The position numbers were made by a program, and so were the translations under genes. This document shows, piece after piece, positions 16,597 through 59,978 of a stretch of 64,000 nucleotides of DNA. The notes beneath the pieces are model-generated. The model saw only the letters and a program-made list of their open reading frames with translations, searched no databases and was not told where the DNA came from. This DNA comes from Bacteroidota bacterium (GTDB lineage Bacteria; Bacteroidota; Bacteroidia; 2-12-FULL-35-15), in the NCBI GenBank assembly GCA_040389865.1, contig JAZJZM010000009.1, positions 5,616 to 69,615 on the forward strand, in the 5' to 3' direction. How positions within the stretch are numbered: the first letter of the stretch is position 1; each line of letters begins with the position of its first letter.

Positions 16597-16672
16597 TCTG
16601 ATAATTTGAAAATTTGTTAATGTGAAATTGCACTGATCAGAAAATAAAATAATTGGTCATCACATTTTCAAA
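16597..16672. repeat. Degenerate octamer (TTTGAAAA/TTTTCAAA) inverted-arm spacer
   Basis: aatttgaaaatttgttaatgtgaaatt ... cacattttcaaa. Confidence 0.45.
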
Positions 16673-16735
16673 AGCCTTGATCCATTGATTTTAGCTTGCT
16701 AATAATACATTCATGTGGCAAAGCAAATTTTTTAA

Positions 16736-18139
16736 TTAGGCTTTTAAAAATCCTAATATTTTTTCAACACTATCTTTAGCATCACCATAAAGCATTTCTG
16801 CATTTGGTTTGTAGAATAAAGGATTTTCTACACCTGCATAACCAACCGACATAGAACGTTTCATTATAATAACTTTCTCCGCTTTCCAAGCTTCAATAAC
16901 CGGCATTCCATAAATAGGACTTGACGGATCGTCCTGCGCTCCCGGATTAACAACATCGTTGGCTCCGATCACCATTACCACATCTGTTTCAGGCAGGTCT
17001 TCGTTTATCTCGTCCATTTCTAATACAATATCGTAAGGTACGTTTGCTTCTGCTAATAGCACATTCATGTGGCCCGGTAAACGACCGGCAACAGGATGAA
17101 TAGCGAATCGCACTTTTTTACCTGCTTTTTGTAATGTTTTTACCATTTCATAAATTGGATACTGTGCTTTTGCAACAGCCATTCCGTAACCCGGTACAAT
17201 AACAACAGATTTTGCTTCTTTTAACAGATCAGCTACTTCTTCATGATTTAATGCCGTTACTTCCCCTTCAATAGCGGTTGCTTCACCAGATGATTTAACG
17301 GTGCCAAAACCTCCGAGGATAACAGAGAAGAAAGAACGGTTCATTGCTTCACACATAATGATGGAAAGAATTGCACCCGAACTACCAACCAATGCACCAG
17401 TTACAATTAATAGATCGTTCCCTAACATAAAACCAGCAGCAGATGCAGCCCAACCCGAATATGAGTTTAACATAGAAACTACTACCGGCATATCAGCACC
17501 ACCAATTGCCATCACTAACATTACACCAACAAAACCTGCAATAGCTGTCATAATGTATAAATACATCATTCCATCAATACCTTCAGCTCCTGCAAATAAC
17601 ACCCCCAATACAATAGAGGAAAGTACCATTATTATATTAACAGCATGTCGTCCTGTATACAATAAAGGCTTGCTCATGATCTTGCCTTCTAATTTACCCC
17701 AGGCAACAATAGAACCAGTAAACGTAATTGCACCAATGAACACACCAATAAATACTTCCACTAAATGGATAGTATGTTCTGTACCGCTTAATGTATGTGT
17801 TGCAGGATCAAGGTATGAACCAAAACCAACAAGTACCGCTGCTAAGCCAACAAAACTGTGTAAGATGGCAACCAGCTGCGGCATGGAAGTCATTTCAACT
17901 TTACGTGCCAATAGTGTTCCAATAATTGCGGCTACTGAAATAGCACCAATAATATAAATATGGCCTTCAACATTTTTACCCAAAACCGTTGCAAGTACAG
18001 CAATAGCCATACCTACAATACCATAAAACACACCACGCTTTGCCGACTCCTGCGAGGATAAACCTCCCAAGCTTAAAATGAACAGAATACTTGCAAATAA
18101 ATAGGCTGCTGTTTGAATTTCTTTTTCTATAAAGATCAT
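16736..18139 (-). CDS. pntB: NAD(P)+ transhydrogenase subunit beta
   Basis: [47 protein letters not shown] motifs. Confidence 0.97.
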
Positions 18140-18200
18140 ATTTCCTGATTTAACTCCTTTATTATTTTTATTATCTGGTGTTGTTGAAGCTAAAGCTTTC

Positions 18201-19742
18201 TTATTTTTTAAACATTTTCAACATACGGTGTGTAACCACAAATCCTCCAACAATATTGATGCTGGCAACCAAAATAGCAACTGATGCTAAAACGGTCATT
18301 ACTAAAGAACTTGATAGATCACCCTTAGTTTGTAACAGGCCTCCAACGATGATGATACCGCTAATAGCATTGGTAATGGCCATTAATGGAGTGTGAAGTG
18401 AATGTGATACATTCCAGATCACTTGCCAGCCAATGAATACGGCTAATACAAACACCGTAAAATGTTGCATAAATTCGCCAGGAGCAAATTGTCCCATTGC
18501 TAATAAAAGCGCGCCAATTACACCCAATTTAATAACCATGGATCTGGCTTCCTTTTTATTTTTCCGTTCCGATACAATTTTGGGATCTTCCACTACAACC
18601 TCCGCTGCTTTAGTCTTTGCCGGACTAACAGGAAGTGGTGCTGGTGGCCAATTGATTTTACCATTATACGTTACCATTGCTCTTGACACAACAGCATCTT
18701 CCATATCAATTTTCCATTTGTCCGCTTTACCCATATCATCTAATAAATGACACAAGTTATTTCCATATAACTGTGAAGCCTGAGTAGGAAGTTGATTTAA
18801 TTTACCAACCATAGTAACTCCATTGTCGGTTGTATAAACTTCTCCATTTCTGGTAAGATCACAGTTACCACCACTTGATGCCGCTAAGTCAACAATAACC
18901 GAACCGGGCTTCATGGCAGCAACATGGTAATCCATCCACAATTTAGGAGCGGGTCTACCAGGAATTTGTGCGGTGGTAATAACGATATCAACTTCTTTCG
19001 CTTGTTCTAAAAATAATTTCATCTCTGCTTCGATGAATTCTTTACTCATTTCTTTTGAGTATCCTGATGATGTAGCACCATCTTCATTAATTTCAACAGT
19101 TAAGAATTGCGCACCCATCGATTCGATCTGTTCTGCAACTTCTTTTCGTGTATCAAATGCTCTTACAATTGCACCTAATGAATTGGCAGCACCAATGGCA
19201 GCAAGGCCAGCTACTCCAGCTCCAATGACAAGCACTTTGGCCGGTTCCACTTTTCCCGCTGCTGTAATTTGTCCGTTAAGAAATCTTCCAAAATAAAACG
19301 AACCTTCTATAACAGATCTATATCCTGCAATGTTTGCCATTGATGACAAAACATCCATTTTTTGCGCTCTGGAAATACGAGGGATCGCATCCATTGCAAT
19401 TGCATTTACTTTTTTATCGGCTAATTTTTGAAGTAGGGGTTGATTTTGTGCAGGCCATAGGTAACTAAGCATTACCAAGCCTTCTCTCATCATGTCAATT
19501 TCTTCCATTGCAGGCTCTTTTACCTTTAGTACAATGTCGGATTTACCATATATATCGGCAGCTGTAGCAACTATTTTAGCTCCTGCTTCTTCAAAATCTT
19601 TATCAGAAAAATTTGCTTTTAATCCGGCATTATGCTGAATATAAACTTCAAATCCTTGTTTCTGAAGTCGTTTAACGGTTTTGGGAGTTGCCGCGACCCT
19701 TAATTCGTTTGGGAAAATTTCCGATGGAATTCCTACCTTCAT
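18201..19742 (-). CDS. pntA: NAD(P)+ transhydrogenase subunit alpha (single chain)
   Basis: [39 protein letters not shown] motifs; 513 aa including the membrane segment. Confidence 0.97.
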
Positions 19743-19745
19743 AAT

Positions 19746-19852
19746 TTAGTGATTTAGAGATTGGGTGATTTAGAGAATTCGTCATTTAATAAAATTTAGT
19801 CCTTTGAAAATTTTTCAAAATCTCCATTTTTTCAATTCTCCAATTCTCTATT
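19746..19852. repeat. Octamer inverted-arm spacer (TTAGAGAT / AATTCTCC)
   Basis: ttagtgat ttagagat tgggtgat ttagagaa ... aatctcc ... caattctc caattctc. Confidence 0.65.
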
Positions 19853-19946
19853 TTTCTACGCCCCGAAAGTAGTAAAATATTAGTTTACCAACAAAAATAT
19901 AAGAAATTTGGATTTATAAAGGAGTAAAACAACTCCTTAAGTGTTG

Positions 19947-19954
19947 TATTTTTG
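19947..19954 (+). promoter_or_regulatory. Bacteroidota -7 element
   Basis: TATTTTTG, 18 nt before the ATG at 19973. Confidence 0.5.
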
Positions 19955-19972
19955 TGCAAAAAATTAAAAAAA

Positions 19973-20647
19973 ATGAATAAATTTATTGCCGGCATCCTAC
20001 TAATAATAAGCATTGATTCTTGTCAAATAAAAACGATGGCACAACAAACTATCCGCTATGTTGCATTAGGCGATTCCTATACCATCTGCACGGGTGCGCA
20101 GGAAGAAGAATCCTGGCCGGTATTGCTTACTAAACATTTAAAAGAAAAAAATGTTGACATTGAACTAATCGCTAATCCTTCCGTAAACGGGATGACCACT
20201 CAGGCGGTTATTGAGTACGAATTACCGGTACTCGATAAATCAAAACCCACATTTGTAACCTTACTTATTGGCACAAACGATTGGGTGGTAGGCGCTGACT
20301 CGGTTTCATTTCAAAAAAGACTTGTTTACATTATAGAACACGTACAAAAGCAATTACCTGATAAAAACAAATTGATCCTGATAACACTTCCTGATTTTAG
20401 TGTAACGCCTTCGGGCAAAAACTACGGTCGTGGACGTGATATTTCAAAAGGAATTGCTGAATTCAATAAAATAATTATTTCAGAAGCCAAGAAACGAAAT
20501 TTAAAAACGGTTGATCTTTTTGAGGTCTCAAAAAAAATGGGAACAGAACCTGATCTGGTTTCGACAGATGGCTTACACCCTTCGGCAAAAGGATATGCAA
20601 CATGGGAATCACTTATTTTTCCGGTGGCCTATGAGTTATTGAAATAA
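19973..20647 (+). CDS. SGNH/GDSL hydrolase
   Basis: GDSY (block I), IGTND (block III), DGLHP (block V). Confidence 0.9.
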   Translation: MNKFIAGILLIISIDSCQIKTMAQQTIRYVALGDSYTICTGAQEEESWPVLLTKHLKEKNVDIELIANPSVNGMTTQAVIEYELPVLDKSKPTFVTLLIGTNDWVVGADSVSFQKRLVYIIEHVQKQLPDKNKLILITLPDFSVTPSGKNYGRGRDISKGIAEFNKIIISEAKKRNLKTVDLFEVSKKMGTEPDLVSTDGLHPSAKGYATWESLIFPVAYELLK

Positions 20648-20849
20648 GTTAAAAGTTTTTAAGTCAAAAGTCAAAAAGGTATAGTTGAAAGTCAAAAGAG
20701 TGAAATCAAAAATTAAAGAAGAAAAAGGTAAGTCAAAATTCAAAAGATGGAGAACAAATTACGGCTTTTGGCTTTATCATTTTAACTTTCCTTTTTGACT
20801 TTTTTCTCTTTTAACTTTTTTCTTCTTTTGACTTAAAAACTTTTGACTT
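20646..20849. repeat. Heptamer (AAGTCAA/TTGACTT) inverted-arm spacer with 25-bp terminal inverted repeats
   Basis: 20646-20670 pairs with 20825-20849 at 24/25 positions; the remaining position is T:G. Confidence 0.85.
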
Positions 20850-20856
20850 AAATTGA

Positions 20857-20864
20857 TATCTTTG
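20857..20864 (+). promoter_or_regulatory. Bacteroidota -7 element
   Basis: TATCTTTG, 18 nt before the ATG at 20883; TTTG tetramers lie upstream within the repeat arm. Confidence 0.6.
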
Positions 20865-20882
20865 CAGCCAAATTCCACATAA

Positions 20883-22676
20883 ATGGCACGTAAAGTCAAA
20901 GAAACAGACGATCTCCCTAAAGTAAAATTAACTAAATCATCCTTAAAAAAAGCATTACGTATTTTTCAATATGCCGGAGAGCATAACTGGAAACTATACA
21001 TTGGCTTGTTTTTTCTAATATTGACAGGTGGGACGGCTTTGGTTTTCCCCTGGATGTTAGGTGATCTGATAAAAAGTGTAGAGTTAAAAAATTTCTCCAA
21101 CATCAATGATATTGGACTTTACCTTATTCTGGTCCTTATACTCCAATCGGTTTTTTCGTATTTCAGAATTTATCTTTTTGTGAATTATACCGAAAATACC
21201 TTAGCCACATTGCGCCAGGCTTTATATGCTCAAATGATACGATTACCGATGTCGTTTTACGCAGAACAAAGGGTGGGAGATCTTAACAGTCGTATTTCTT
21301 CAGACATTTCACAATTATCCGATACGTTAACCACTACTATCGCTGAATTTCTAAGACAATTCATGTTAATAATCGGAGGTATTATTTTATTGCTGTTCAT
21401 CTCCCCTAAATTAACGCTTTTAATGTTGGCAATTGTGCCTGTAGTAGCTGTTGCTGCTGTTATTTTTGGCCGGTTTATCCGAAAAGTTTCGAGAGAAGTT
21501 CAGGATAAGATCGCGGAGTCGAATACAATTGTACAGGAAACATTGCAAGGAATTACTAATGTAAAGGCCTTCGCAAATGAATATTTTGAGAATTTAAGAT
21601 ACAAAAAAAGCACTGAATCAATTGTTGTAACAGCAATTCAGGGTGGAAAATACCGTGGAGCTTTTGCTTCATTTATCATCTTTTGTTTGTTTGGAGCGAT
21701 AGTAGCCGTTATTTGGTACGGAGTTTATCTTGCTTCAATGGATCAATTATTTATTGGTGATCTGATCAAATTTATTCTGTATTCAGTATACGTAGGTGCT
21801 TCATTTGGTGGTATTGCAGAACTTTATTCTCAAATTCAAAAAGCGGTAGGTGCAACTGAACGTGTATTCGAAATACTGGATGAACACCCCGAAGACCTTG
21901 ATATCACTACCGCTCAAACAAACATTACCCGTATAGAAGGGAATGTAGAGTTTAGAGATGTTGCATTTACATACCCTTCGCGCAAAGAAATTCAGGTATT
22001 AAAAAACATTAATCTTACAGCAAAAAAAGGTGAAACAATTGCCGTTGTCGGACCAAGTGGTTCGGGGAAATCCACTTTAATAGGGCTATTGCTGCGTTTT
22101 TACGATCCGGAGAAAGGAACACTTCTGATCGATGGAAAAGATGCAAAAAGCTATTCCTTAACAGAATTGAGAAACAATATGGCGATGGTGCCACAGGATG
22201 TAATATTATTTGGAGGTAGCATTAGAGAAAACATCGCTTATGGCAAGCCAACTGCAACTATCGCTGAAATTGCTGAGGCTGCGCGTAAAGCAAACGCATT
22301 GGAATTTATTGATACATTTCCTGAAAAATTTGAAACCCTTGTTGGCGAGCGCGGTATCAAACTTTCTGGAGGACAGCGCCAACGTATTGCTATTGCACGT
22401 GCTGTATTAAAAGATCCAAGTATTTTAATATTAGATGAAGCCACAAGTTCACTGGATTCGGAATCGGAACGGGTGGTACAGGAAGCCCTTGATAAACTTA
22501 TGGTTGGTCGTACTTCATTTGTAATTGCTCACCGATTATCTACCATCCGTAAAGCGGATAAAATCATTGTAATTGATAAAGGAAATGTTCGGGAAACCGG
22601 AACTCATGAGGAGCTGATCCTTCAGGAAAATGGCCTTTACCGCAGCTTAAGTAAGTTACAAATGGAATTAGCGTAA
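20883..22676 (+). CDS. ABC transporter fused permease/ATPase (MsbA-like exporter)
   Basis: N-terminal TM helices; Walker A GPSGSGKS, signature LSGGQ, Walker B ILILDEAT. Confidence 0.92.
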   Translation: MARKVKETDDLPKVKLTKSSLKKALRIFQYAGEHNWKLYIGLFFLILTGGTALVFPWMLGDLIKSVELKNFSNINDIGLYLILVLILQSVFSYFRIYLFVNYTENTLATLRQALYAQMIRLPMSFYAEQRVGDLNSRISSDISQLSDTLTTTIAEFLRQFMLIIGGIILLLFISPKLTLLMLAIVPVVAVAAVIFGRFIRKVSREVQDKIAESNTIVQETLQGITNVKAFANEYFENLRYKKSTESIVVTAIQGGKYRGAFASFIIFCLFGAIVAVIWYGVYLASMDQLFIGDLIKFILYSVYVGASFGGIAELYSQIQKAVGATERVFEILDEHPEDLDITTAQTNITRIEGNVEFRDVAFTYPSRKEIQVLKNINLTAKKGETIAVVGPSGSGKSTLIGLLLRFYDPEKGTLLIDGKDAKSYSLTELRNNMAMVPQDVILFGGSIRENIAYGKPTATIAEIAEAARKANALEFIDTFPEKFETLVGERGIKLSGGQRQRIAIARAVLKDPSILILDEATSSLDSESERVVQEALDKLMVGRTSFVIAHRLSTIRKADKIIVIDKGNVRETGTHEELILQENGLYRSLSKLQMELA

Positions 22677-22835
22677 CAATTAATTTTGCAATTAACCAAT
22701 TGAGCAGTAGGCAATAAAAAAGCAATTATACAATTTTGCAGTAGGCAATAAACCAATTTAACAGTAGGCAATTTTAAAATTAATTGAACAATTATTTAAC
22801 TAATAAATTGCTACTGACAAATTGTTAAATTGATA
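22676..22835. repeat. Repeat spacer with three GCAGTAGGCAAT-type units and a complementary ATTGCTACTG arm
   Basis: gcagtaggcaat twice and acagtaggcaat once, interspersed with gcaatta-like units; right arm aaattgctactgacaaattg. Confidence 0.65.
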
Positions 22836-22870
22836 TTCTTAACTTTACATACTATTTATTTACTTATTAT

Positions 22871-25087: not shown

Positions 25088-25220
25088 TTTAAGTTTTAAA
25101 GTTGGAAAGTTTAAAGTTAGAAAGTTCAAATTTGTTGACATAAAATTTTTAGCTTACAATTTATTATAAACGTATAATAACCGGCAAATTTTAAACTTTA
25201 AACTTTCTAACTTTGAACTG
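25088..25220. repeat. AAAGTT/AACTTT 7-8 nt alternating inverted-arm spacer
   Basis: aaagtt gg aaagtt t aaagtt ag aaagtt c ... aacttt a aacttt ct aacttt g aact. Confidence 0.8.
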
Positions 25221-25260
25221 TTTTTTTCGTATTTTTATACCTTAAATATATTGCAATACT

Positions 25261-25779: not shown

Positions 25780-25856
25780 GTTTGAGAAAAATAAATTCAA
25801 TTTTGAAAAATGCAGATTTGAAAATATTTTTTTTAATTTTCAAATTAACAAATTAA
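25778..25856. repeat. Octamer (TTTGAAAA) spacer
   Basis: tttgagaaaa...ttttgaaaaatgcagatttgaaaat...ttttcaaattaacaaattaac. Confidence 0.45.
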
Positions 25857-25859
25857 CTT

Positions 25860-26207: not shown

Positions 26208-26214
26208 AAAAGAT

Positions 26215-26353
26215 AGTTTTAAAGTTCAAAGTTTGAATGTTTAAAGTTTGAAAATGAATTTAAGAAATCGAATATTCAATTCAACTTATTTGCAACCTAC
26301 TTTAGATAAAATCCAAACGAACTAACAAACTTTAAACTTTACAACTTTAAACT
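26215..26353. repeat. AAAGTTT/AAACTTT heptamer inverted-arm spacer
   Basis: aaagttcaaagtttgaatgtttaaagtttg ... aaactttaaactttacaactttaaact. Confidence 0.75.
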
Positions 26354-26363
26354 AATTTGTAAC

Positions 26364-27659: not shown

Positions 27660-27822
27660 ACACCTCTCCCTTAATCCCTCTCCACAGGAGAGGGGCTAAA
27701 CGTAAAAAAGAAAAGGTTATATGATGAGGCTAATTTATAAAGTTAATTGCAAGCAACTCTCCTTCCCCCGCCCCTCCCGTGGAGAGAGGATTAAGGAGAG
27801 CGCTATTCTTTGGAGAGGGTTA
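27636..27822. repeat. Cluster of CCCCTCTCC..GGAGAGGGG-type REPs between purA and ostA-like gene
   Basis: cctctcccttaatccctctccacaggagaggggct; ctccttcccccgcccctcccgtggagagaggattaaggagag; tggagagggtta. Confidence 0.7.
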
Positions 27823-29442: not shown

Positions 29443-29522
29443 TTTTTAATTATGTTGAATGTAAATATTGAATTTTGGATGTTGAATGGTGGATGTTGGA
29501 TGTTGGATGTTGAATTATCATT
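29443..29522. repeat. GGATGTT heptamer tandem between convergent genes
   Basis: ggatgttgaat ggtggatgtt ggatgtt ggatgtt gaat. Confidence 0.75.
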
Positions 29523-33643: not shown

Positions 33644-33707
33644 CTTTCTACCTCACCCCTTAATCCCCTCTCCAATTGGAGAGGGGATTAAGGGGTGAGG
33701 TAGAAAG
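33644..33707. repeat. Perfect 64-bp palindrome with no loop (head-to-head REP doublet)
   Basis: Checked base by base: 33644-33675 is the exact reverse complement of 33676-33707. Confidence 0.9.
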
Positions 33708-36807: not shown

Positions 36808-36856
36808 TCCTATACTATTTTGAAACTTCAGGAATGCTCTATGGAGAGAGTATCTT

Positions 36857-36930
36857 CTTTTTCCTACGGCAGCATTAACTGCATCAGGTATGAGGGTATT
36901 ATCTCAGCCGGTATTGTGGCACCCCTAAAG
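36857..36930 (-). ncRNA. TPP riboswitch
   Basis: Minus strand AGGGGTGC...GGCTGAGATAATACCCTCATACCTGATGCAGTTAATGCTGCCGTAGGAA matches the THI-box core; lies upstream of thiS. Confidence 0.95.
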
Positions 36931-36936
36931 TTTTTA

Positions 36937-37779: not shown

Positions 37780-38181
37780 TTAATTGCTCAGTTCTTGGAA
37801 TTTCTTTCTGAACTCTAAAGGATTCACGATTTTTGGGAATACTTCTTTTGTTCCGCCTGAACCTGTAATTTTTAAGGTACCATAGCCAAGAATACGACCT
37901 AAAAGTCCTTGGTCAACATTTACGCTCTCAATTTTGCTTAAATTCATTTCAAGTGTCTTACTACTAAGAAAACCTGTCTTTACAATTAATCTTTTATTTG
38001 TAATAGCAAATTCAGAAGTTTTCATTGCAATTAAAGGTGCTATAAAAAGTGTCAGTACTGAACCTACATTGCAAAAAGTAATCCAGTGTAAAGTTGATTC
38101 ATGTTCAACTCTTTCGTCTTTAATTAAATTTTGGTTTACGTAATTTCCCATTGATATAAGTTTAAAAAAATTCCTACTCAT
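37780..38181 (-). CDS. Bacterial PH domain (bPH_2) membrane protein
   Basis: EFAITNKRLIVKTG...LSKIESVNVDQGLLGRILGYGTL; alternative start at 38151. Confidence 0.85.
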   Translation of the reverse strand: MSRNFFKLISMGNYVNQNLIKDERVEHESTLHWITFCNVGSVLTLFIAPLIAMKTSEFAITNKRLIVKTGFLSSKTLEMNLSKIESVNVDQGLLGRILGYGTLKITGSGGTKEVFPKIVNPLEFRKKFQELSN

Positions 38182-38415
38182 ATGGCTTTTCGGAGTCGCC
38201 CCGTTTTTAGAGTGCTTTCTGGACTACACTTTTGTATTTTGATATTAAAATAATTTCAAACAAAAAAGTACTATTCAATTAATTATTACTTGGTTCTCTT
38301 ATGTTTGCTGCTTCCTTATACAATTTTCGGAAAGTGTAAATATATAAAATATCTACTTATAAATTCCTATTTATATATAGGTGTTTATAAGTTCTGTAAT
38401 TCTTCAATTTGTATT

Positions 38416-42905: not shown

Positions 42906-42965
42906 TTTCTCGACTACGCTCGAAATGACTGCACACATAGCTATTTCGAGCTGAGTCGAGAAATT
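42906..42965. repeat. TTCTCGACT..CTCGAAAT REP doublet
   Basis: tttctcgactacgctcgaaatgac ... tatttcgagctgagtcgagaaa. Confidence 0.75.
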
Positions 42966-42999
42966 TTGAGGCCATAAATTATTGTGGAATAAATTTAAA

Positions 43000-44034: not shown

Positions 44035-44478
44035 ATGAGCATTTGGTTTAAACCTTATACAGCTGCCGACATTCAAAGGATGCTGAAAAACAATATGTGT
44101 GAAACCATTGGTATTGAAATTACCGAACTCACACCCGATTCTGTTAAAGGCAAAATGCCCGTGGATCACCGCACAGTGCAGCCTATGAATATATTGCACG
44201 GTGGTGCATCCGTTGCTTTAGCCGAAACACTTGGCAGTATCGGTTCCCATTTAATTGTAGATCCCACTATTTATGCCTGTGTAGGATTGGATATAAATGC
44301 CAATCATTTACGCCCTGCAGTTGGTGGATTTGTTTATGCCGAGGCAAAACCAATTCATATTGGTAAAAAAACACATGTATGGAGTATTGAAATAAAAAAT
44401 GAGCAAGGTAAATTGGTTTGTATAAGCAGGCTTACAATGGCTGTAATTGAAATACCAGTTGGAAAGTTGAAAGTTTAA
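44035..44478 (+). CDS. Hotdog-fold thioesterase (PaaI/MenI-like)
   Basis: QPMNILHGGASVALAETLGS motif. Confidence 0.88.
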   Translation: MSIWFKPYTAADIQRMLKNNMCETIGIEITELTPDSVKGKMPVDHRTVQPMNILHGGASVALAETLGSIGSHLIVDPTIYACVGLDINANHLRPAVGGFVYAEAKPIHIGKKTHVWSIEIKNEQGKLVCISRLTMAVIEIPVGKLKV

Positions 44479-44524
44479 AGTTAAGTACTCAACTTTAAAC
44501 TTTGAACTTTAAACTTTAAACTAA
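44456..44524. repeat. AAAGTT/AACTTT heptamer inverted-arm spacer whose left arm encodes the thioesterase C-terminus
   Basis: ggaaagttgaaagtttaaagtt-aagtactc-aactttaaactttgaactttaaactttaaact. Confidence 0.8.
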
Positions 44525-46368: not shown

Positions 46369-46643
46369 AATTTAACACAGAGGTCACTGAGTGTTATGAG
46401 TTTCACAGAGAAAAAACAGATTTTTCATTAATAGTTATAAAACTCTGTGCACCTCCATTTCCACTGTGTACTCTGTGTTGAACAATATTAGATTGTAATA
46501 GCGGAGCTGTGAGTGAGTGTTGAGTCGAAAAAATTTAACACGGAGATCACAGAGTTTAGAGAGTTGCACAGAGAAATGTCAGATATTTTTTTAGATTTTA
46601 AAACTCTGTGTACCTCCGTTTCCACTGTGTACTCTGTGTTAAA
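46369..46643. repeat. Two tandem CACAGAG...CTCTGTG REP doublets (period about 161 bp)
   Basis: 46369-46482 and 46531-46643 share aatttaacac(a/g)gag...cacagag and aaaactctgtg..cctcc.tttccactgtgtactctgtgtt. Confidence 0.85.
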
Positions 46644-49611: not shown

Positions 49612-49635
49612 CGATGTATCTATCCTGAAAATAAA

Positions 49636-49666: not shown

Positions 49667-49687
49667 AAATATACTAAATATTATTTT

Positions 49688-50548: not shown

Positions 50549-50641
50549 ATTTTTTCTAATTTTGAAGTTTTATTAATAAATTGACCAGAATTATCTTTAC
50601 ATTACAATATTAGGTATATTTTTTATAATTTACATTTTAAT

Positions 50642-51658: not shown

Positions 51659-51735
51659 TTGACAATGGAAAATTAACAATTGATAATGATACGTCCCAAC
51701 ATCTAATATCTAATAACTAAACATCTAACATCTTT
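51657..51735. repeat. Degenerate heptamer spacer (TTGACAA / AACATCT)
   Basis: ttgacaatggaaaattaacaattgataat ... caacatctaatatctaataactaaacatctaacatc. Confidence 0.55.
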
Positions 51736-51744
51736 CAAGAAAAA

Positions 51745-52077: not shown

Positions 52078-52166
52078 AAAAAAATAATAGAAGGAAGCAA
52101 ATTTATTTTTAAACTCTGTTAGGTGGGTTATTTAAATTCGTGAATCCATAGAAACACCATTTCTAT

Positions 52167-52267
52167 TGTCATCCCGAGTTTTTTACGAGGGATCTTGTTT
52201 TTAATATTGCATATTCTTATACTAATTAACAAGATCCTTCTCACGTAAAAACGTGAGAAGGATGACA
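52167..52267. repeat. TGTCATCC...GGATGACA REP doublet between convergent gldC and engB
   Basis: tgtcatcccgag...gggatcttgtt / aacaagatccttctcacgtaaaaacgtgagaaggatgaca. Confidence 0.75.
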
Positions 52268-52305
52268 TTTGTGAGAGGCATAATTGCAATAAATTGAACT
52301 GCCTT

Positions 52306-52914: not shown

Positions 52915-52929
52915 TATTTTAGTTTTAAT

Positions 52930-53058
52930 TTGGAAAGTTTAAAGTCCAAAGTTTCCTTCAAACTTCCTATTTTCCATATTGATTATCATTTTTTTTCATT
53001 CACTTATTTCTATTCGCCATTTTAACTTTTCAACTTTAAACTTTCTAACTTTAAACTG
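52930..53058. repeat. AAAGTT/AACTTT inverted-arm spacer
   Basis: ggaaagtttaaagtccaaagttt ... aacttttcaactttaaactttctaactttaaact. Confidence 0.75.
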
Positions 53059-53071
53059 TCCGAATTAAATT

Positions 53072-54001: not shown

Positions 54002-54009
54002 TTTTTTTT

Positions 54010-54085
54010 GTTTAAAGTTTGAAAGTTATTTAGTTTAAAGTTGAGTTCTGTATTACACACTTTCAAATTTCAACTTTGAACTTTC
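54010..54085. repeat. AAAGTT/AACTTT inverted-arm spacer; one arm encodes the acyltransferase C-terminus
   Basis: gtttaaagtttgaaagttatttagtttaaagttg ... ttcaaatttcaactttgaactttc. Confidence 0.7.
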
Positions 54086-54963: not shown

Positions 54964-54989
54964 AAAGTAATACTGCGAATAAAAATAAC

Positions 54990-55925
54990 TTATTTTTTTA
55001 AATTGATAATTTCAAATAACAATCCTTCTTTCAACGAATAAGTTGACAAACGCATTTTGGGAATTGAAAATGATTTAAGAATGAAATGAACCAGGATACT
55101 TGAGATCACGATCATATCCACTCTCATCGCAACAAGCCCTTTCATTTGCAAACGTTCTGCAAGGGTTGATTTCACAATTGTTTTATGAACCGCAGCACAA
55201 TCATCTAAATTAAAACTGAATTCTGTTTTACCATCAAAAATATGAGGTGAGTAAAACCGGTGTGCTACCATTTCTGCAATTGAATCGAATGAGCCGGAAG
55301 AACCAATTAATTCAGTTATCGGAAATTCTTTAACAGCATTAAAAAGCGGTTGTAACTCCTGATTTAAATAATCAACCAAAGCTTGCTTCTCTTTATCGGT
55401 GATGGGATCGGAAGGATTAAACATTTCGAGCAAACGGGCTACGCCTAATAAAAAACTTTGCTTCCAAAATATCTGATGTTTATTCGCAATGATAAATTCA
55501 GTACTACCTCCACCAATATCAATGATCAAAGAGGTTTCATCGCTCATCTTCACTGCATCACGTACGCCATAATAAATGGTTTCCGCCTCTTTATCACCCG
55601 AAATAACCTGCACATCAATGTTGCATTCTTCATTTGCTTTGGCAACAAATTCAGGTCCGTTTGAAGCACCCCTGATAGCCGATGTAGCAATAGCATATAC
55701 CTTTCCTACATTATATTTTTCGATAGTTTGTTTGTGAACTTTAAGCGCATCAATACCGCGATTAAAAGGAAGCGGTGCAATGAAACCTTTATTAATTCCA
55801 CCTTCACCCAGCTTCACAGAAATTTTAGTTTGAAAGATAAGTTCATAGGTCTTATCAGAACTTACTTCAACAATGAGAAGATTAAATGTATTGGTTCCTA
55901 GATCAATGACTGCAATGCGATTCAT
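54990..55925 (-). CDS. ppx: Ppx/GppA phosphatase (short form)
   Basis: IDLGTNTF, ATSAIR, EAETIYYG, DIGGGSTE, LKEG; no C-terminal HD domain. Confidence 0.88.
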   Translation of the reverse strand: MNRIAVIDLGTNTFNLLIVEVSSDKTYELIFQTKISVKLGEGGINKGFIAPLPFNRGIDALKVHKQTIEKYNVGKVYAIATSAIRGASNGPEFVAKANEECNIDVQVISGDKEAETIYYGVRDAVKMSDETSLIIDIGGGSTEFIIANKHQIFWKQSFLLGVARLLEMFNPSDPITDKEKQALVDYLNQELQPLFNAVKEFPITELIGSSGSFDSIAEMVAHRFYSPHIFDGKTEFSFNLDDCAAVHKTIVKSTLAERLQMKGLVAMRVDMIVISSILVHFILKSFSIPKMRLSTYSLKEGLLFEIINLKK

Positions 55926-55932
55926 CTATACT

Positions 55933-56058
55933 AATTAGAGATTTGTTGATTTAGAGATTTGCTAATTTACTGATTTATTTAATTCTACAACTCTCCATTT
56001 CTCTATTTCGCGAATTTCTTAATTCTCCAACTCTGTAAATCTCCACTTCTCCAATTAA
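55933..56058. repeat. Octamer inverted-arm spacer (TTAGAGAT / ATTTCTCT-AATTCTCC)
   Basis: ttagagatttgttgatttagagatttg ... ctctccatttctct...aattctcc...aatctccacttctcc. Confidence 0.7.
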
Positions 56059-57396
56059 TTATCCTTTATAAAAAAGCCATTTACCCAACTCTTTCCAGGT
56101 AACCTTTTTGCCATACATTAATATGCCGGTACGATAGATACGAGCGGCAAGCCAGGTAGTAAAAATAAAACCAAGTACCAGTAAACCCATTGAAAGCGCC
56201 AACTCCCAGGCAGGAACTCCAAAAGGCATTCTCACCATCATGATCACAGGTGAGGTTAATGGTATTATTGAAAACCAAAAGGCCATAGGGCTTTCCGGGT
56301 CTTGAATCACATTTTGAGCGATAATAAATGAGAAAATAAGAGGTATCGTTATCGGCAACATAAATTGCTGGGTATCAGCTTCACTATCCACAGCAGAGCC
56401 CACTGCAGCAAATAGTGCACTATACAAAAGATAACCGGCCAAAAAATAAAATAAGAAACATAAAAATATAGTTACCATATCAACGGACTTAAAATCATTC
56501 CAAACTTCTGTAACAACATTAGGCCGGTCCATTTTTTTCATTTCAGAATACTTTAGATCAGCGCCTACTTTTATTATTTGCTCCTTTTGCTGCACCTGCT
56601 TTACGTCAATATTTTTCAAAATGGTAACTGAAGCAACACTGTATAATGTCATTGTTAAAATCACCCATAATAAAAACTGTGTTAAACCAACCAATGCAAC
56701 TCCAAGTATCTTACCCATCATCAGCTGAAATGGTTTTACTGAAGAAAGTATCACTTCCACAATACGGCTTGTTTTCTCCTCCATTACACCTCGCATTACC
56801 TGCACACCGTAAAGAAAAATGAACATATAGATCAATACGCCCCCTCCTATCCCGATTGCCATAAACAATCCGGTATTTGTTTTTTTGCTCTTACCCGTTT
56901 CTTCTAATTTTTCAGTGATAACGGTGAACCTGGAATTTACTTCCGCATCTTTTATTGTATTCAGATCTACCTTGTTTTTGGCCAAAATAACATTGTACAT
57001 CATTTTACTGATCGTAGAACCGATATATTCTTCAGTAGCAATACCCAATTGTTTTTTATAAAATAATTTTATTGCTTTTCCGCCTTCTAAAATATTATCG
57101 GGTATAAATAATATTGCATCATAGCTAGACTCATAAAAGCCTTCCTGTGCCTTTTCAAAGCTTATATCAGGATAATCAAAATCAATAAATTCTTTTTGTG
57201 GAATCAGATCTTTAAATAAATAACTCTCATCGATCACCTGAATCTCCTGCTTTTCTGTTTTTTGTGTTGCCATCCAGATAGGCACGATCATCAATCCGGC
57301 CATCAAAACAGGGCCAAGAATAGTCATAATGATGAATGATTTTTTCTTAACCCTTGTTAAGTATTCACGTTTTATTATGAGAGAGATTTTATTCAT
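56059..57396 (-). CDS. ABC-2 type permease (NatB-like)
   Basis: IIKREYLTRVKKKSF, VMEEKTSRIVEVILSSV.PFQLMMGKILG, PLTSPVIMMVR. Confidence 0.9.
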   Translation of the reverse strand: MNKISLIIKREYLTRVKKKSFIIMTILGPVLMAGLMIVPIWMATQKTEKQEIQVIDESYLFKDLIPQKEFIDFDYPDISFEKAQEGFYESSYDAILFIPDNILEGGKAIKLFYKKQLGIATEEYIGSTISKMMYNVILAKNKVDLNTIKDAEVNSRFTVITEKLEETGKSKKTNTGLFMAIGIGGGVLIYMFIFLYGVQVMRGVMEEKTSRIVEVILSSVKPFQLMMGKILGVALVGLTQFLLWVILTMTLYSVASVTILKNIDVKQVQQKEQIIKVGADLKYSEMKKMDRPNVVTEVWNDFKSVDMVTIFLCFLFYFLAGYLLYSALFAAVGSAVDSEADTQQFMLPITIPLIFSFIIAQNVIQDPESPMAFWFSIIPLTSPVIMMVRMPFGVPAWELALSMGLLVLGFIFTTWLAARIYRTGILMYGKKVTWKELGKWLFYKG

Positions 57397-57467
57397 TAAC
57401 TGAAGTTTCGGGATTATTTTCTGATATAATTGATCTATTACTTTCTTCGGAGAAGAAGTATTATTTT

Positions 57468-57570
57468 ATTCATTTGGGCGTTCCCTTTCTTAAATAAGAA
57501 AGGGCCGGGCTTTTCACTTCAATCTTTTCTTAAACAAGAAAAGGATTTACGTTTCAATCCCTAACGCAGC
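57468..57570 (-). mobile_element. Empty ~103-bp MITE-like scaffold
   Basis: Minus strand gctgcgttagggattgaaacgtaaatcc...aagattgaagtgaaaagcccggccctttc...gaaagggaacgcccaaatgaa. Confidence 0.75.
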
Positions 57571-57608
57571 TTTAACCTTAAAAACGTGAACTTAGCTTCA
57601 TACAAACT

Positions 57609-58538
57609 TTAGCCGGGTATTGCTACCTCTTCGTTTACCTTAGCAATAAAAATATCATTCATACTTGGAATAATTTCTTTAAAGGAATAAATTTCAGCAA
57701 CCGGCATCACGGCATGTAATAATTCATTCGATTTTGTTCCTGTGGCCAATTGAACATGAGCTTTACAATATTCTCCTTCAGTAACGTGGTCTACAAGTTT
57801 ACCATGTGTCCATAACGAATTGGTAAAACCCATCATATTTCCTGAAAATTCTATCTCATAAATATTGGTTCTAAATTGTTTACGAATTTCCTTTACAGAA
57901 CCATCCAGAATTTTTTTCGATTTATTTATAAGGGCAATATTATCACACAGCTCCTCTACTGATCCCATGTTATGCGTTGAAAATAAAATGGTAGAACCTT
58001 GCTTTTTTAAATGTAAAATTTCGTTTTTTATCAGGTTGGCGTTAATAGGATCAAAACCGCTAAAAGGCTCATCTAATATCAACAATTTGGGTTCGTGCAT
58101 AACAGTTACAATGAACTGAACTTTTTGCTGCATCCCTTTCGAAAGTTCTTCTATTTTTTTATGCCACCAGGCATCTATCTCAAATTTCTCAAACCAATAT
58201 TTTAATTTTATTTTGGCATCACTCTTCGTCATCCCCTTTAATTGTGCCAAATACAGAGCCTGCTCGCCTACCTCCATTTTTTTATAGAGTCCGCGTTCTT
58301 CGGGTAAATAACCGATCTGTTCAATATGTTTTGGAGATAATTTTTCGCCTTCAAAAAAAAGCTCTCCACTATCAGGACCAGTGATTTGGTTGATAATACG
58401 AATAAGAGAAGTTTTGCCGGCACCGTTGGGTCCCAATAAACCGAAAATACTTTGTTGAGGAATTTCTAATGTTACATCATTCAGGGCAGTATGGCTTGAA
58501 TAACGTTTTACAATATTTTGTGCGGAAAGAATATTCAT
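57609..58538 (-). CDS. ABC transporter ATP-binding protein (NatA-like, C-terminal DUF4162-type extension)
   Basis: GPNGAGKT, LSKGMQQ, LILDEP, FSTH. Confidence 0.92.
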   Translation of the reverse strand: MNILSAQNIVKRYSSHTALNDVTLEIPQQSIFGLLGPNGAGKTSLIRIINQITGPDSGELFFEGEKLSPKHIEQIGYLPEERGLYKKMEVGEQALYLAQLKGMTKSDAKIKLKYWFEKFEIDAWWHKKIEELSKGMQQKVQFIVTVMHEPKLLILDEPFSGFDPINANLIKNEILHLKKQGSTILFSTHNMGSVEELCDNIALINKSKKILDGSVKEIRKQFRTNIYEIEFSGNMMGFTNSLWTHGKLVDHVTEGEYCKAHVQLATGTKSNELLHAVMPVAEIYSFKEIIPSMNDIFIAKVNEEVAIPG

Positions 58539-58667
58539 TGGCTATTAGTCATTTGTCATTGGGGAGTGGTCATTGCTCATTGGTCATTAGTGATCAGTTA
58601 TTAATATTAGTGTAAACTACACCCACAGCCTAATAACAAATGACTAATGCCCAGTGACTATGTGATG
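58538..58667. repeat. STRR-like heptamer inverted-arm spacer (TT(G/T/A)GTCA)
   Basis: Nine in-phase heptamers 58538-58600 (ttggcta ttagtca tttgtca ttgggga gtggtca ttgctca ttggtca ttagtga tcagtta); complementary arm ctaataacaaatgactaatgcccagtgact. Confidence 0.85.
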
Positions 58668-59825
58668 TTATTCAAAATATTGTTTCATCCTTTCAAAAAA
58701 ACCACGGTCTTTTTTGGTTGGATTTGGTTTAAAGTTTTCCGCATCCCGCAATCCCTCTAAGATCACTTTTTCATCCTTGCTTAAATGTTGTGGGGTCCAT
58801 ACGTTAATATTTACCAAAATATCACCACGGGAATAACTATTAATATCAGGTAAACCTTTAGCCTTAAGGCGAAGTACTTTACCACTTTGAGTGCCAGCAT
58901 CTACCTTTATTTTAGCCTTTCCATCAATAGTTGGCACTTCAATATGTGTACCCATGGCTGCATCAACAAAACTTATAAAATGGTCGTAAAATAAATTCAA
59001 ACCATCACGTTTCAAAAGCTCATGCTCCACCTCTTCGATCACAATAATTAAATCCCCGGCAACACCGCCACGCGCACCCATATTACCTTTTCCACTTACC
59101 GAAAGCTGCATTCCATCAGCAACACCTGCAGGTATATTAATATTGATCACATCTTCATCACGAACAATTCCATCACCATGACAAACAACACATTTATCAG
59201 TAATGCTTTGGCCTTCGCCACCACAAGTAGGACATGTGCTTGTAGTTTGCATTGCACCAAGTATGGTATTGGTTATACGTGATACCTGTCCCGTTCCTCT
59301 ACAGGTAGAACAGGTATTAAATGCCGAACCATCTTTTGCACCACTTCCGCTACATGGTTTACAAGCTACGTACTTATTTACTTTAATTTTTTTCTCTACT
59401 CCGTTCGCAATTTCTTCAAGTGTCATTTTCACTTTCACTCTCAAATTGGATCCGCGATTTACTCGCTTTCCTCCGCGGCCACTGCTACCACCACCAAAAT
59501 GACCACCAAAAACATCTCCAAACTGACTGAATATGTCATCCATATTCATGCCGCCAAAACCACCGGAACCTCCTCTACCGCCTCCAAATCCACCATTACC
59601 GCCCATTCCGGCATGTCCGAATTGATCGTAACGTTGTTTTTTTTCAGCATTGCTTAATATCTCATAAGCTTCTGCGGCTTCTTTAAATCTTTCCTCTGCA
59701 GCTTTATCACCCGGGTTTTTATCGGGATGAAATTTGATCGCCATTTTGCGATATGCTTTTTTTATCTCATCCCCACTTGAATTCTTTTGAACTTCTAATA
59801 TTTCGTAATAATCTCTTTTCGACAT
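58668..59825 (-). CDS. dnaJ: Chaperone DnaJ
   Basis: J domain with HPD, G/F-rich region, four CxxCxGxG repeats. Confidence 0.98.
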
Positions 59826-59837
59826 TTTTTTATTTTA

Positions 59838-59978
59838 ATGATTTGGAGAAGTAATGATTTGGAGATTTGTAATTATAATTTAAAAATCTTTAATCTCCCA
59901 AACTCTATAATTCTTTAATTCTCTATCTCTTCAACTCTCTATTTCTCTATTTCTCTAATTCTCTATTTCTCTAATTTT
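59838..59978. repeat. Octamer inverted-arm spacer (GATTTGGA / ATTTCTCT)
   Basis: aatgatttggagaagtaatgatttggagattt ... (atttctct/aattctct) repeated. Confidence 0.75.

Follow-up and report, generated by a model that had tools for sequence, protein, structure and literature searches.

We found that in a 64-kb stretch of genomic DNA from an uncultured Bacteroidota bacterium (GenBank assembly GCA_040389865.1, contig JAZJZM010000009.1, positions 5,616 to 69,615; the whole stretch is here called the window), about 15 intergenic regions (IGRs) are built from degenerate tandem arrays of 7- and 8-nucleotide (nt) units and that these arrays obey a polarity tied to the flanking stop and start codons. Read in the sense of the mRNA, the array adjacent to a stop codon is poor in C and rich in G, U, and A, and the array adjacent to a start codon is poor in G and rich in A, C, and U. 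This polarity is real, widespread, and independent of the formation of a stem by the two arrays. The arrays themselves are dispensable and turn over very fast, such that the orthologous IGRs of close relatives carry different units or nothing. The spacers constitute a phylum-wide Bacteroidota variant of heptanucleotide long simple sequence repeats (LSSRs), which are known and poorly understood. To account for them, we tentatively favor a scheme in which dispensable, rapidly replaced arrays, often foldbacks, are born by slippage, their units spread between IGRs, and selection at the level of the transcript filters them into a single polarity; in our estimate, this scheme has somewhat less than an even chance of being correct.

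The window has a G+C content of ~36%, and an identical 13-kb sequence is present in an independent Logan sample (SRR26324623, contig L001). The genomes nearest to it are metagenome-assembled genomes labeled Bacteroidota/Bacteroidia, with RelA 86 to 90% identical, followed by Pedobacter, Mucilaginibacter, and Sphingobacterium. The comparison set comprised ~165 loci (L numbers below) from Sphingobacteriia, Cytophagia, and Flavobacteriia, namely, 80 relA loci (one genome per species), 80 metagenomic purA loci, and contigs of close relatives; part of the relatives sampled are not independent of the window. Arrays were called with Tandem Repeats Finder (TRF), and foldbacks were identified by a scan for inverted repeats and by RNAfold z scores relative to dinucleotide shuffles.

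Tandem arrays of 7- and 8-mers fill spacers between housekeeping genes

The preliminary description of the window had reported intergenic tandems of 7-mers, 8-mers, or alternating 7/8-mers, and these proved to be real. TRF returned 24 arrays with a period of 7, 8, or 14 to 16 in the window, against 2.5 ± 1.4 (maximum, 6) in shuffles that keep the composition within 100-nt blocks, and such arrays lie at 14 of the 15 listed spacers, which we designate by their approximate starting positions (Table 1). The outlier is spacer 22676, which has a period of 23/34 nt with the GCAGTAGGCAAT motif as its base. At spacer 20646, TRF calls the right arm and a 16-nt AAGTCAA run at the left, the rest of the purine-rich left arm being delineated by the inverted-repeat scan and the fold. 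Across the IGRs of the ~165 loci, period 7 predominates (71 arrays), followed by periods 8 (31 arrays) and 14 (13 arrays), with no other period exceeding 9 arrays; the density of arrays is ~9-fold greater in IGRs, which constitute 14% of the sequence. As also described previously, the spacers lie mostly between codirectional genes (13 of 15), and an open reading frame (ORF) is found in none of the 15.

Low-complexity sequence arising by chance in AT-rich IGRs, or faulty assembly of a metagenome, might produce tracts of this kind, and both the AT-rich genome and the short, degenerate nature of the arrays at 16597, 25778, and 42961 would be in keeping with such an origin. This explanation, to which we assign a negligible probability, is refuted by the tenfold excess over composition-preserving shuffles, by a period distribution sharply peaked at 7 and 8, by the identical sequence in the independent contig L001, and by isolates of Pedobacter, Sphingobacterium, and Mucilaginibacter whose genomes show the same architecture.

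The genes flanking the spacers are housekeeping genes, including pntA/pntB and those for a GDSL lipase, an ABC exporter, RelA/SpoT, Fur, a STAS protein, PurA, an LptD-like protein, a thioesterase, a pterin dehydratase, GldB/GldC, EngB, two lipid acyltransferases, Ppx, an ABC-2 transporter pair, DnaJ, and GrpE. The units in the window include AAAGTTT, TTAGAGAT, AAGTCAA, TTGGTCA, GGATGTT, and ATTTGAAA, none of which has regular runs of three or more G residues, and certain units are reused (AAAGTTT in five to six IGRs and TTAGAGAT in three). Stop codons in all three frames are enriched in both array types relative to mononucleotide shuffles (35 versus 21.4 and 22 versus 10), a measure that the periodicity itself inflates.

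One further array of the AAAGTTT/AAACTTT family, (CAACTTT)n with 4.7 copies at positions 2940 to 2972, lies in frame within the ORF of a UbiD-like decarboxylase (1410 to 3248), where it encodes ...LNQLSTLNFELLT...; a heptamer array thus appears to be tolerated inside this coding region. Directly past the stop codon of the same ORF (3262 to 3330) is a 10-nt tandem array (CACTAAGAAA-like), the period of which is unlike that of the 7/8-mer system.

Array polarity follows stop and start codons in the window and in relatives

Thirteen of the 15 window spacers, weak ones included, have two arms, and in all 13 the G-rich arm is at the left and the C-rich arm at the right on the + strand. Given that a G-first foldback reads G first on both strands, this constitutes one rule in the sense of the mRNA irrespective of the orientation of the genes. 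The arms adjoin the genes closely, starting 4 to 14 nt past the stop codon or overlapping it and lying 2 to 40 nt ahead of the start codon. The two single-arm spacers have, respectively, only a G arm located 10 nt after a stop codon (29443) and only a C arm located 11 nt before a start codon (51657). The sole array in the window that breaks the rule is a weak 15-mer with 2.4 copies at 42961 to 42996. The G-first order given in the initial report stands for every two-arm spacer.

The same bias is recovered in the loci outside the window. After stop codons, G-type arrays outnumber C-type arrays 31:13, as against 99:112 for the flanks of array-free IGRs (P = 0.001); before start codons, C-type arrays outnumber G-type arrays 29:5, as against 179:99 for array-free flanks (P = 0.006); and position is strongly associated with type (Fisher's test, P = 9e-7). 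We accordingly reject background composition as the source of the polarity, the array-free flanks being too weakly biased to yield it. Among the nonwindow IGRs with two arrays of opposite types, 18 have the order G→C and 1 has the order C→G, and pairs of arrays that are not complementary show the G→C order 8:0. The order was observed in 21 of 22 cases, in agreement with the fraction of 0.89 that two independent end preferences predict. A particularly clear case is L165, in which GGCAATT/GGCAGTT units past the stop codon grade into AACAATT/AACAGTT units before the start codon in direct orientation, with G replaced; in this gradient, a single array family loses G according to position.

The G-first architecture, with other units, recurs in the ~165 loci of Sphingobacteriia, Cytophagia, and Flavobacteriia. 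The suggestion that unrelated units share one architecture is borne out as nonrandom and extends across Bacteroidota, which argues for a common process that generates and selects the arrays.

Two unusual arrangements were noticed in this context. In L024 (Pedobacter alpinus), one-sided heptamer arrays of up to 157 nt (18179 to 18335 and 20436 to 20568; G0/C65 on the + strand) are of the G type in the mRNA sense, have no complementary partner, and lie between minus-strand genes that look like SusC/SusD genes, as judged from the sequence without a Pfam scan. In the window, a 40-nt element (CTCTGTG...ACTCTGTGTT) occurs three times at 46443 to 46643, alternating C type/G type/C type, in a 296-nt convergent IGR past an S13 peptidase gene; it is no 7- to 8-mer tandem and is the sole C-first arrangement noticed in the window.

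About half of the spacers fold, and a role on the mRNA is possible

The preliminary description had paired each G-skewed arm in most spacers with a complementary C-skewed arm. This holds for about half of them: RNAfold z scores of −2.7 or lower were obtained on at least one strand at 8 of the 15 (20646, 25088, 26215, 44456, 52930, 55933, 58538, and 59838), and the fold is not significant at the other 7 (16597, 19746, 22676 on the + strand, 25778, 29443, 51657, and 54010). Complementary IGRs reach z scores of −3 to −10, as opposed to noncomplementary IGRs of L165, which do no better than shuffles, with one doing worse (z scores of +1.3 and +3.2). Since roughly half of the spacers lack a fold beyond that of shuffles and noncomplementary pairs nonetheless keep the G→C order, the polarity does not depend on a stem.

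The foldbacks might be selected intercistronic stem-loops on polycistronic mRNAs, acting as RNase III sites in the manner of the intervening sequences (IVSs) of rRNA, as stabilizers of 3′ ends in the manner of the repetitive extragenic palindromic (REP) hairpins of Escherichia coli, or as translational couplers. In the last case, the base of the stem would pair the region after the stop codon with that before the start codon, and a terminating ribosome would free the G-poor leader. On the sequence evidence we regard such a role as possible but unlikely. The proximity of the arms to both codons, whereby the base of the stem would join them, is consistent with it, as are the folding of 8 of the 15 spacers and of many in relatives far beyond shuffles (z scores down to −10), the position of spacers inside likely operons (grpE-dnaJ, fur-STAS, whose genes overlap in relatives, and the acyltransferase pair), and the recurrence of arrays with differing units at the same IGRs. 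Further, L045 has a canonical terminator in the position of the relA-fur arms, where the C arm of the window is followed by a T7 tract, and in L166 two tRNA genes flank a G-first stem that encloses an IVS protein gene, a context that fits excision by RNase III.

Several observations count against selection for the stems. The + and − strands of the spacers fold about equally well. If folding tracked the mRNA, an excess of wobble pairs might be expected on the sense strand, a check proposed in the preliminary description; across 29 codirectional hairpin IGRs, mismatches in the mRNA sense are of the G:U type in 31 cases and of the A:C type in 41 (P = 0.29), and the excess is thus absent. Compensatory changes were seen in 2 of 22 pairs among three homologous dnaJ-ABC hairpins, a count confounded by register shifts and the small number of sequences. 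Half of the window spacers and several in relatives are unfolded and polarized all the same, close relatives dispense with spacers altogether, and neither known processing stems nor terminators resemble the AT-only stems and the loops of 60 to 140 nt. A consensus scan called a canonical intrinsic terminator in none of the spacers, with calls elsewhere (e.g., 60744 to 60713, after ahpC), and the T7 tract after the C arm occurs at spacer 25088 only. Inspection of the G arms by eye revealed nothing convincing that resembles the Bacteroidetes-type promoter motif TAnnTTTG. Were the stems nevertheless used, they would represent a new class of intercistronic regulators within core operons such as grpE-dnaJ and relA-fur-purA.

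A search with Rfam 15 at the gathering score gave three matches in the window, none of them within the listed spacers: a TPP riboswitch (36844 to 36936, − strand), a DUF805 RNA motif (38167 to 38234, − strand), and a Flavo-1 RNA (57499 to 57575, − strand) in the IGR between the ABC ATPase and ABC-2 permease genes, which is conserved in L163 and absent from L162 and L175 (IGR of 6 to 7 nt).

Spacers are gained, lost, and replaced between close relatives

Comparison with orthologous IGRs, as recommended in the preliminary description, uncovered sites without a spacer at fur-STAS, STAS-purA, dnaJ-ABC, and GNAT-engB. In L045 and L003, fur and STAS overlap by 4 nt, versus an 80-nt repeat spacer in the window; the STAS-purA IGR is an array-free 44 to 51 nt in L045 and L085, versus 156 nt in the window; the canonical terminator of L045 stands in place of the relA-fur arms; and the dnaJ-ABC IGR measures 4 nt in L176 and L177. 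The GNAT-engB IGR is 45 nt in L176 (13995 to 14039) and 18 nt in L177 (11843 to 11860). The latter, AAAGTTTAAACTAAAATA, is composed of a single G unit and a single C unit. Its final 10 nt are shared with the 157-nt spacer of the window, and it may represent a seed of the AAAGTTT foldback found there or a scar left by deletion of that foldback. In both L176 and L177, the pair of G and C units forms the palindrome AGTTTAAACT. A putative palindromic seed of the AAAGTTT family, GTTTAAAC, has no occurrence in 28 kb of IGRs of the clade and is not enriched; therefore, shared seeds do not explain the reuse of that family.

Replacement is evident at grpE-dnaJ. The window and L164 are 91 to 95% identical at the nucleotide level in genes and 90 to 96% identical in plain IGRs, and their grpE-dnaJ spacers are unrelated (52%). 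This IGR carries arrays in seven of eight genomes, all in the order G→C, with at least six unit families: TTAGAGAA in the window, GTGCTAAT/TTTGAAAAT with CAAATTAT in L164, GGCAATN with AACAATT in L165, GTGCTGAT with ATCAGCAC in L176, GTTAAGA with CAATTCAA in L177, and the perfect, young arrays of GGTAATA (7 copies) in L162 and GTTAATA (13 copies) in L163; L175 has no arrays. At relA-fur, AAAGTTT in the window corresponds to AGTTATR in L082 and L083, and the IGR is array free in L045, L086, and L088. Other spacers are homologous and differ in unit copy number, namely, dnaJ-ABC in the window, L164, and L175 and acyltransferase-GNAT and ABC2-ppx in the window and L162.

Units are also reused within a genome and shifted between sites. 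In L165, GGCAATN occurs in at least four IGRs and GGGTAATT in two. The TTTGAAAAT/CAAATTAT family is found at fur-STAS and 16597 in the window and at grpE-dnaJ in L164, and the GCAGTAGGCAAT/AACAATT motif family of spacer 22676 (ABC-relA) also fills the STAS-purA IGR of L082 and several IGRs (at least four) of L165.

This multiplicity of units bears on whether each might be recognized by a protein that binds single-stranded RNA or DNA, for instance, ribosomal protein S1 or a cold-shock-domain or CsrA-like protein, with the arrays serving as translational enhancers or regulators. The G-poor A/C/U arrays directly ahead of start codons, such as CAAATTAT and AACAATTT, would suit such a role and resemble the omega leader of tobacco mosaic virus, an unstructured leader with ACAAUUAC repeats; likewise, spacers without hairpins are no more structured than shuffles and in some cases less so. 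The size of the footprint reported for cold-shock-domain proteins (reviewed in PMC4679880) agrees with the period of 7 to 8 nt, and a binding-site role has been proposed for the TAACTGA repeats upstream of start codons, which in Beggiatoaceae and Flexibacter litoralis are in forward orientation just upstream of starts (PMC4679880). Nevertheless, at least six unrelated unit families occur in the 64-kb window, and families differ at the same gene in close relatives, which argues against sequence-specific recognition; moreover, the flanking genes have no common function and the arrays are missing in relatives. We judge a protein-binding role to be improbable.

Other intergenic repeats exist in the same clade. 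A G+C-rich palindromic family (…CCCCTCTCC-TTTGGAGAGGGG-ATTAAGGGG-AGAGG…) that looks REP-like is found in the window at 27664 to 27800, 33644 to 33707 (a perfect palindrome of 32 + 32 nt), and about 4967 to 5173, as well as at the dnaJ-ABC IGR of L162 and L163, the grpE-dnaJ IGR of L175, L083 (5307 to 5530), and L002 (16680 to 16790); it takes the place of heptamer spacers at orthologous IGRs of relatives. L002, the closest relative in the genome collection, further has at 4690 to 5030 and 15187 to 15990 an array of a ~23- to 24-nt unit (GAGTTCATTTAGAACGTAAGT) in many copies and a ~200-nt IGR repeat with internal hairpins, both being hypervariable types.

Possible mobile DNA and four-helix-bundle genes

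An alternative is that the spacers are nonautonomous mobile DNA, either similar to foldback elements and MITEs (miniature inverted-repeat transposable elements) or remnants of IVS-type cassettes devoid of an ORF, moved in trans by a recombinase or transposase with a preference for gene boundaries. Foldback transposons and MITEs have long inverted arms of degenerate tandem subrepeats and a variable loop, sometimes with an ORF in it. The architecture of the spacers resembles that of the Foldback elements of Drosophila; these elements are eukaryotic, and copies of a MITE share internal sequence and target-site duplications. Genome-specific favorite units in several IGRs, the presence of the same families at other IGRs of close relatives (TTTGAAAAT/CAAATTAT and GCAGTAGGCAAT), the wholesale replacement of one spacer at a gene divergence of ~5 to 9%, the existence of empty sites, and the ORF in the loop of one arm pair (L166) would all be accommodated by such mobility. 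The details point the other way. Blastn matches among the 15 spacers are confined to the arms and never include the loops, those of spacers with the same unit being unrelated, and on this ground we reject the possibility that they are MITE copies. No target-site duplications were seen at three junctions aligned to empty sites, alignments that are poor owing to the divergence of the IGRs. The loops being unrelated, the spacers are not copies of one repeat-flanked mobile unit, contrary to the idea that they derive from such a unit by loss of its ORF. In addition, arm lengths and registers differ freely, noncomplementary arrays in direct orientation behave alike, and no transposase was noted among the scanned genes of the window or the called genes of the fetched contigs. 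Mobile DNA is thus an unlikely explanation.

The statement in the preliminary description that genes for four-helix-bundle proteins of the IVS type (PF05635) are often flanked by such repeats was confirmed in one instance. The window has no PF05635 gene, and one was found in ~2.4 Mb of fetched loci. In L166, a PF05635 gene between two tRNA genes is preceded by (GGGTGTG)n and followed by (CACACCC)n, forming a G-first heptamer stem with the ORF in its loop (arm duplex of −60.6 versus −39 ± 4 kcal/mol). A clean pair of arms is present in only this one of five IVS gene contexts, which weighs against a mobile cassette; two others are one-sided, with a G-type array upstream in L070 and a C-type array downstream in L173. 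All five contexts belong to one PF05635 subfamily and have tRNA-Ser(GCU) upstream and/or tRNA-Pro(UGG) downstream of the gene; L173 shows tRNA-Pro only, and L171 has an intervening tRNA-Arg. The L166 case does not show that the window spacers derive from IVS gene cassettes. The genomic address of this subfamily (L166, L170, L171, L070, and L173) is shared by Saprospiraceae, Ohtaekwangia, Bacteroidales, and other Bacteroidota, with several loci just downstream of dnaA.

A tentative scheme of slippage, spread, and filtering

On the basis of these observations, we suggest that replication slippage in intergenic DNA may create and lengthen tandem arrays of 7- or 8-nt units and that many of them may be copied in inverted form, by template switching or palindrome-forming errors, to give foldback spacers. 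The mirroring of unit variants between the arms of relA-fur in L083 and the alternation of 7- and 8-mers at 25088 fit inverted copying. By an additional step, unit families would spread, or be converted, from one IGR to another nearby within a genome. The polarity would then reflect a selective filter and not the way in which the arrays are generated. Beside a start codon, a G-poor array would contain few AUG, GUG, or UUG codons and form little structure by itself, which would suit the initiation of translation independent of Shine-Dalgarno sequences in Bacteroidota; conversely, a long C-rich, G-poor untranslated run past a stop codon would conceivably be harmful, e.g., as a loading site for Rho. 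With a filter of this kind acting on the transcript, arrays and foldbacks of opposite polarity would be lost. Where the arms are complementary, the transcript would possess a long AT-rich intercistronic stem joining the stop region to the start region, which probably modulates mRNA processing, stability, or translational coupling. We regard such effects of the stem as a tolerated or occasionally exploited consequence and not as the reason for the arrays. If the filter is true, the arrays read out what an mRNA may contain beside stops and starts in Shine-Dalgarno-independent bacteria.

Several points weigh against this scheme. Slippage alone leaves unexplained both the reuse of units across IGRs of one genome (AAAGTTT, TTAGAGAT, and GGCAATN) and the occurrence of the same families at different IGRs of close relatives, and some step of transfer or conversion is needed because slippage is insufficient for this. 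The C-poor bias after stop codons is absent from ordinary IGR sequence (99:112), and the Rho half of the filter is therefore a conjecture. Since the same polarity occurs in Xanthomonas, which uses Shine-Dalgarno sequences, an argument from initiation specific to Bacteroidota is not the whole story. The recurrence of arrays at the same IGRs (grpE-dnaJ in seven of eight genomes and relA-fur in three of six) could mean positive selection for a function. Finally, the sample consists of ±10-kb loci centered on two marker genes, together with a dozen contigs of close relatives or with IVS genes, rather than whole genomes, and the longest ORF served as a crude criterion for gene starts.

A more radical proposal, which we consider quite improbable, is that a dedicated system installs, swaps, and homogenizes repeat cassettes at gene boundaries in Bacteroidota and perhaps in Cyanobacteria, Beggiatoaceae, and Xanthomonas. 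The polarity would be the footprint of its mechanism and not a filter, for example, the synthesis of the G strand from both 3′ ends of a break, and the cassettes would be programmable modules of intercistronic processing or coupling. Such a system could be a recombinase or a reverse transcriptase-linked activity, with a possible connection to the Avd-like four-helix-bundle (IVS) proteins, which are abundant.

Relationship to known repeats

Knowledge of bacterial heptanucleotide repeats goes back to 1990. The short tandemly repeated repetitive sequences (STRRs) of cyanobacteria, reportedly described by Mazel et al. in that year in a study cited in PMC4692102, are tandem heptanucleotides in noncoding DNA, and TTGGTCA, the unit of the dnaJ-ABC spacer in the window, is one of the STRR units. 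STRRs differ from the spacers in that they belong to another phylum and have mostly been targets for fingerprinting.

More generally, heptanucleotides are the commonest prokaryotic LSSRs, for which an origin by slippage has been proposed (Mrazek 2007, as summarized in PMC4679880), and “no detailed literature” explains them (PMC4692102). As presented in these two summaries (PMC4679880 and PMC4692102), LSSRs are tandems of 5- to 11-nt units, most commonly of 7 nt, that are mostly intergenic, phylogenetically scattered, variable in length, and thought to be born by slippage. The window spacers show the hallmarks of LSSRs and STRRs: an excess of head-to-tail repetition, a predominant period of 7, an intergenic location, and variation of copy number and sequence between relatives. 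In contrast, the polarity of G and C relative to stops and starts, the pairing of foldbacks, and the replacement of units between close relatives do not figure in what these summaries relate of LSSRs, and Bacteroidota are not among the top genomes they list (PMC4679880 and PMC4692102).

A close parallel in polarity is the GGGAATC repeat of Xanthomonas (Rehm et al. 2015, PMC4692102), which forms 70 to 75 convergent intergenic pairs with the G-rich strand first on either strand, lies near the end of the upstream ORF (mean, 28 nt), and varies in length and sequence between close species. A convergent G-first arrangement is likewise seen in all two-arm window spacers and in a ratio of 18:1 elsewhere; GGG tracts are not a feature of the spacers. 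Both this repeat and GGGGA(T/C)T of Nostoc are single GC-rich units with GGG tracts that have been studied as G-quadruplex formers, and the polarity was not framed relative to start and stop codons (PMC4692102). The units of the window, in contrast, are AT rich, belong to many families, and mostly lack GGG. The TAACTGA repeats (MacGregor 2015, PMC4679880) are intergenic heptamers of Beggiatoaceae, Cyanobacteria, and five Bacteroidetes that are oriented to the downstream start, with one set in F. litoralis reversed just past a stop, and the corresponding IGRs of relatives are shorter and free of repeats; the IGRs of Gramella, Aequorivita, and Elizabethkingia hold other heptamers as well (PMC4679880). 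That study differs in dealing with one unit, mostly as direct repeats of two to six copies with one inverted pair, and in presenting no general polarity rule or foldbacks. Neither TAACTGA nor its complement is among the TRF consensus units of the window.

The REP elements of Proteobacteria, together with bacterial interspersed mosaic elements (BIMEs) and REPINs, resemble the spacers in being intergenic, often between codirectional genes, hairpin forming, and organized in genome-specific families; at orthologous sites they also vary from one close species to another, and they can stabilize upstream mRNA (PMC3116915). They differ in that REP units are conserved imperfect palindromes of ~20 to 40 nt mobilized by REP-associated tyrosine transposases (RAYTs), as opposed to the many families of 7- to 8-nt tandems in the window. 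No RAYT-like gene was noted among the window genes scanned, and no conserved palindromic unit was seen in the spacers. The IVSs of 23S rRNA with their PF05635 genes resemble the spacers in that a flanking inverted stem encloses a loop that may carry an ORF, as in L166; they differ in residing in rRNA, the window spacers lying between protein-coding genes in a window devoid of PF05635.

Within a literature coverage that is incomplete, such that this is absence of evidence only, we found no earlier accounts of a general polarity rule for stops and starts, of multifamily AT-rich foldbacks in this phylum, or of one unit replacing another at a fixed IGR. Three regularities emerge from the window and its relatives: the polarity rule tied to stop and start codons, with or without complementarity of the arms, in at least three classes of Bacteroidota; the complete exchange of units at given IGRs between genomes diverged by just 5 to 9%; and the reuse of genome-specific units in neighboring IGRs. 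In practical terms, the spacers cause breaks in assemblies, make IGRs longer, and are liable to be mistaken for small ORFs or CRISPR-like repeats, and as hypervariable sequences they provide markers for strain typing.

Catalog of arms and other features of the window

The arms and arrays of the individual spacers are collected in Table 1.

Table 1. Arms and arrays of the intergenic spacers of the window (positions in the window; z, RNAfold z score; n.s., not significant)
Spacer	Feature	Positions	Units and composition	Placement, pairing, and conservation
pntB→CHU_C gene (genes on − strand)	One 8-mer array	16595..16627	AATTTGAA; G-poor in mRNA sense	3 nt ahead of start; hairpin n.s.
pntA (−)/GDSL lipase (+), divergent	G-type arm	19744..19788	8-mer TTTAGAGA/TGATTTAG	2 nt from pntA start
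pntA/GDSL lipase	C-type arm	19810..19848	TCTCCAAT	~70% complementary to 19744-19788; fold n.s. (z ~ −1)
GDSL lipase→ABC transporter	Purine/G-rich arm	20648..20735	AAGTCAA-type units	From stop codon on; z = −4.9
GDSL lipase→ABC transporter	Pyrimidine/C-rich arm	20787..20861	TTTGACTT-type units	Ends 21 nt before start
ABC→relA	23/34-nt period array	22688..22835	GCAGTAGGCAAT/AACAATT motifs; short complementary tail AATTGCTACTG	No plain 7- to 8-mer array
relA→fur	G arm	25095..25134	Alternating 7/8-mers AAAGTTT/AAAGTTAG	8 nt past stop; z = −3.4
relA→fur	C arm	25186..25219	AAACTTT	Followed by T7 and a fur-proximal stretch conserved in L045
fur→STAS	G-type array	25793..25824	ATTTGAAA	
fur→STAS	C-type array	25841..25857	CAAATTAA, 2 copies	Ends 2 nt before start; weak hairpin, z = −1.8
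STAS→purA	G arm	26215..26253	AGTTTGAA/AAAGTTT	8 nt past stop
STAS→purA	C arm	26326..26353	AAACTTT	10 nt ahead of start
lptD-like (+)/radical-SAM (−), convergent	Lone G-type array	29452..29515	ATGTTGA/GGATGTT, ~9 copies; G20/C0	10 nt past stop of + gene; no partner arm
Thioesterase→pterin dehydratase	G arm	44457..44486	AAAGTTG/AAAGTTT	Overlaps last codons and stop; z = −4.6
Thioesterase→pterin dehydratase	C arm	44487..44522	AACTTTA	92% complementary, loop free; 14 nt ahead of start
gldB→gldC	Lone C-type array	51698..51733	AACATCT, 5 copies; G0/C8	11 nt ahead of start; less structured than shuffles (z = +2)
GNAT→engB (− strand genes)	Arm G-type on +	52921..52950	G-poor in mRNA	6 nt ahead of engB start; z = −4.4
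GNAT→engB	Arm C-type on +	53020..53061	G-type in mRNA	10 nt past GNAT stop
Acyltransferase→GNAT	Arm G-type on +	54010..54042	GTTTAAA	
Acyltransferase→GNAT	Arm C-type on +	54059..54085	ACTTTCA	Overlaps acyltransferase stop; homologous hairpin in L162
ABC-2 permease→ppx	Arm G-type on +	55931..55976	TTAGAGAT, 8/16-mer	z = −2.9
ABC-2 permease→ppx	Arm C-type on +	55985..56050	TCTCCA/TCTCTA	Shorter homologous spacer in L162, L177
dnaJ→ABC ATPase	Arm G-type on +	58531..58611	TCATTGG/TTAGTCA	Includes ABC start codon; z = −4.2
dnaJ→ABC ATPase	Arm C-type on +	58623..58661	CCAATGA/TGACTAA complement	Homologous in L164, L175
grpE→dnaJ	Arm G-type on +	59838..59880	GATTTGGAGA	z = −2.7
grpE→dnaJ	Arm C-type on +	59893..59976	TCTCTAAT, ~9 copies; G0/C18	4 nt past grpE stop in mRNA sense

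Two further features of the window lie outside these spacers. At 14152 to 14843, a gene for a HigB-like toxin (PF09907) is followed by a 117-amino-acid (aa) ORF with no Pfam match, and the two are probably a toxin-antitoxin pair. At 11852 to 12490, a coding tandem repeat of 147/294 nt (FG-GAP/VCBS-like) is found inside a 792-aa ORF, to which an adjacent 968-aa ORF appears to be related.

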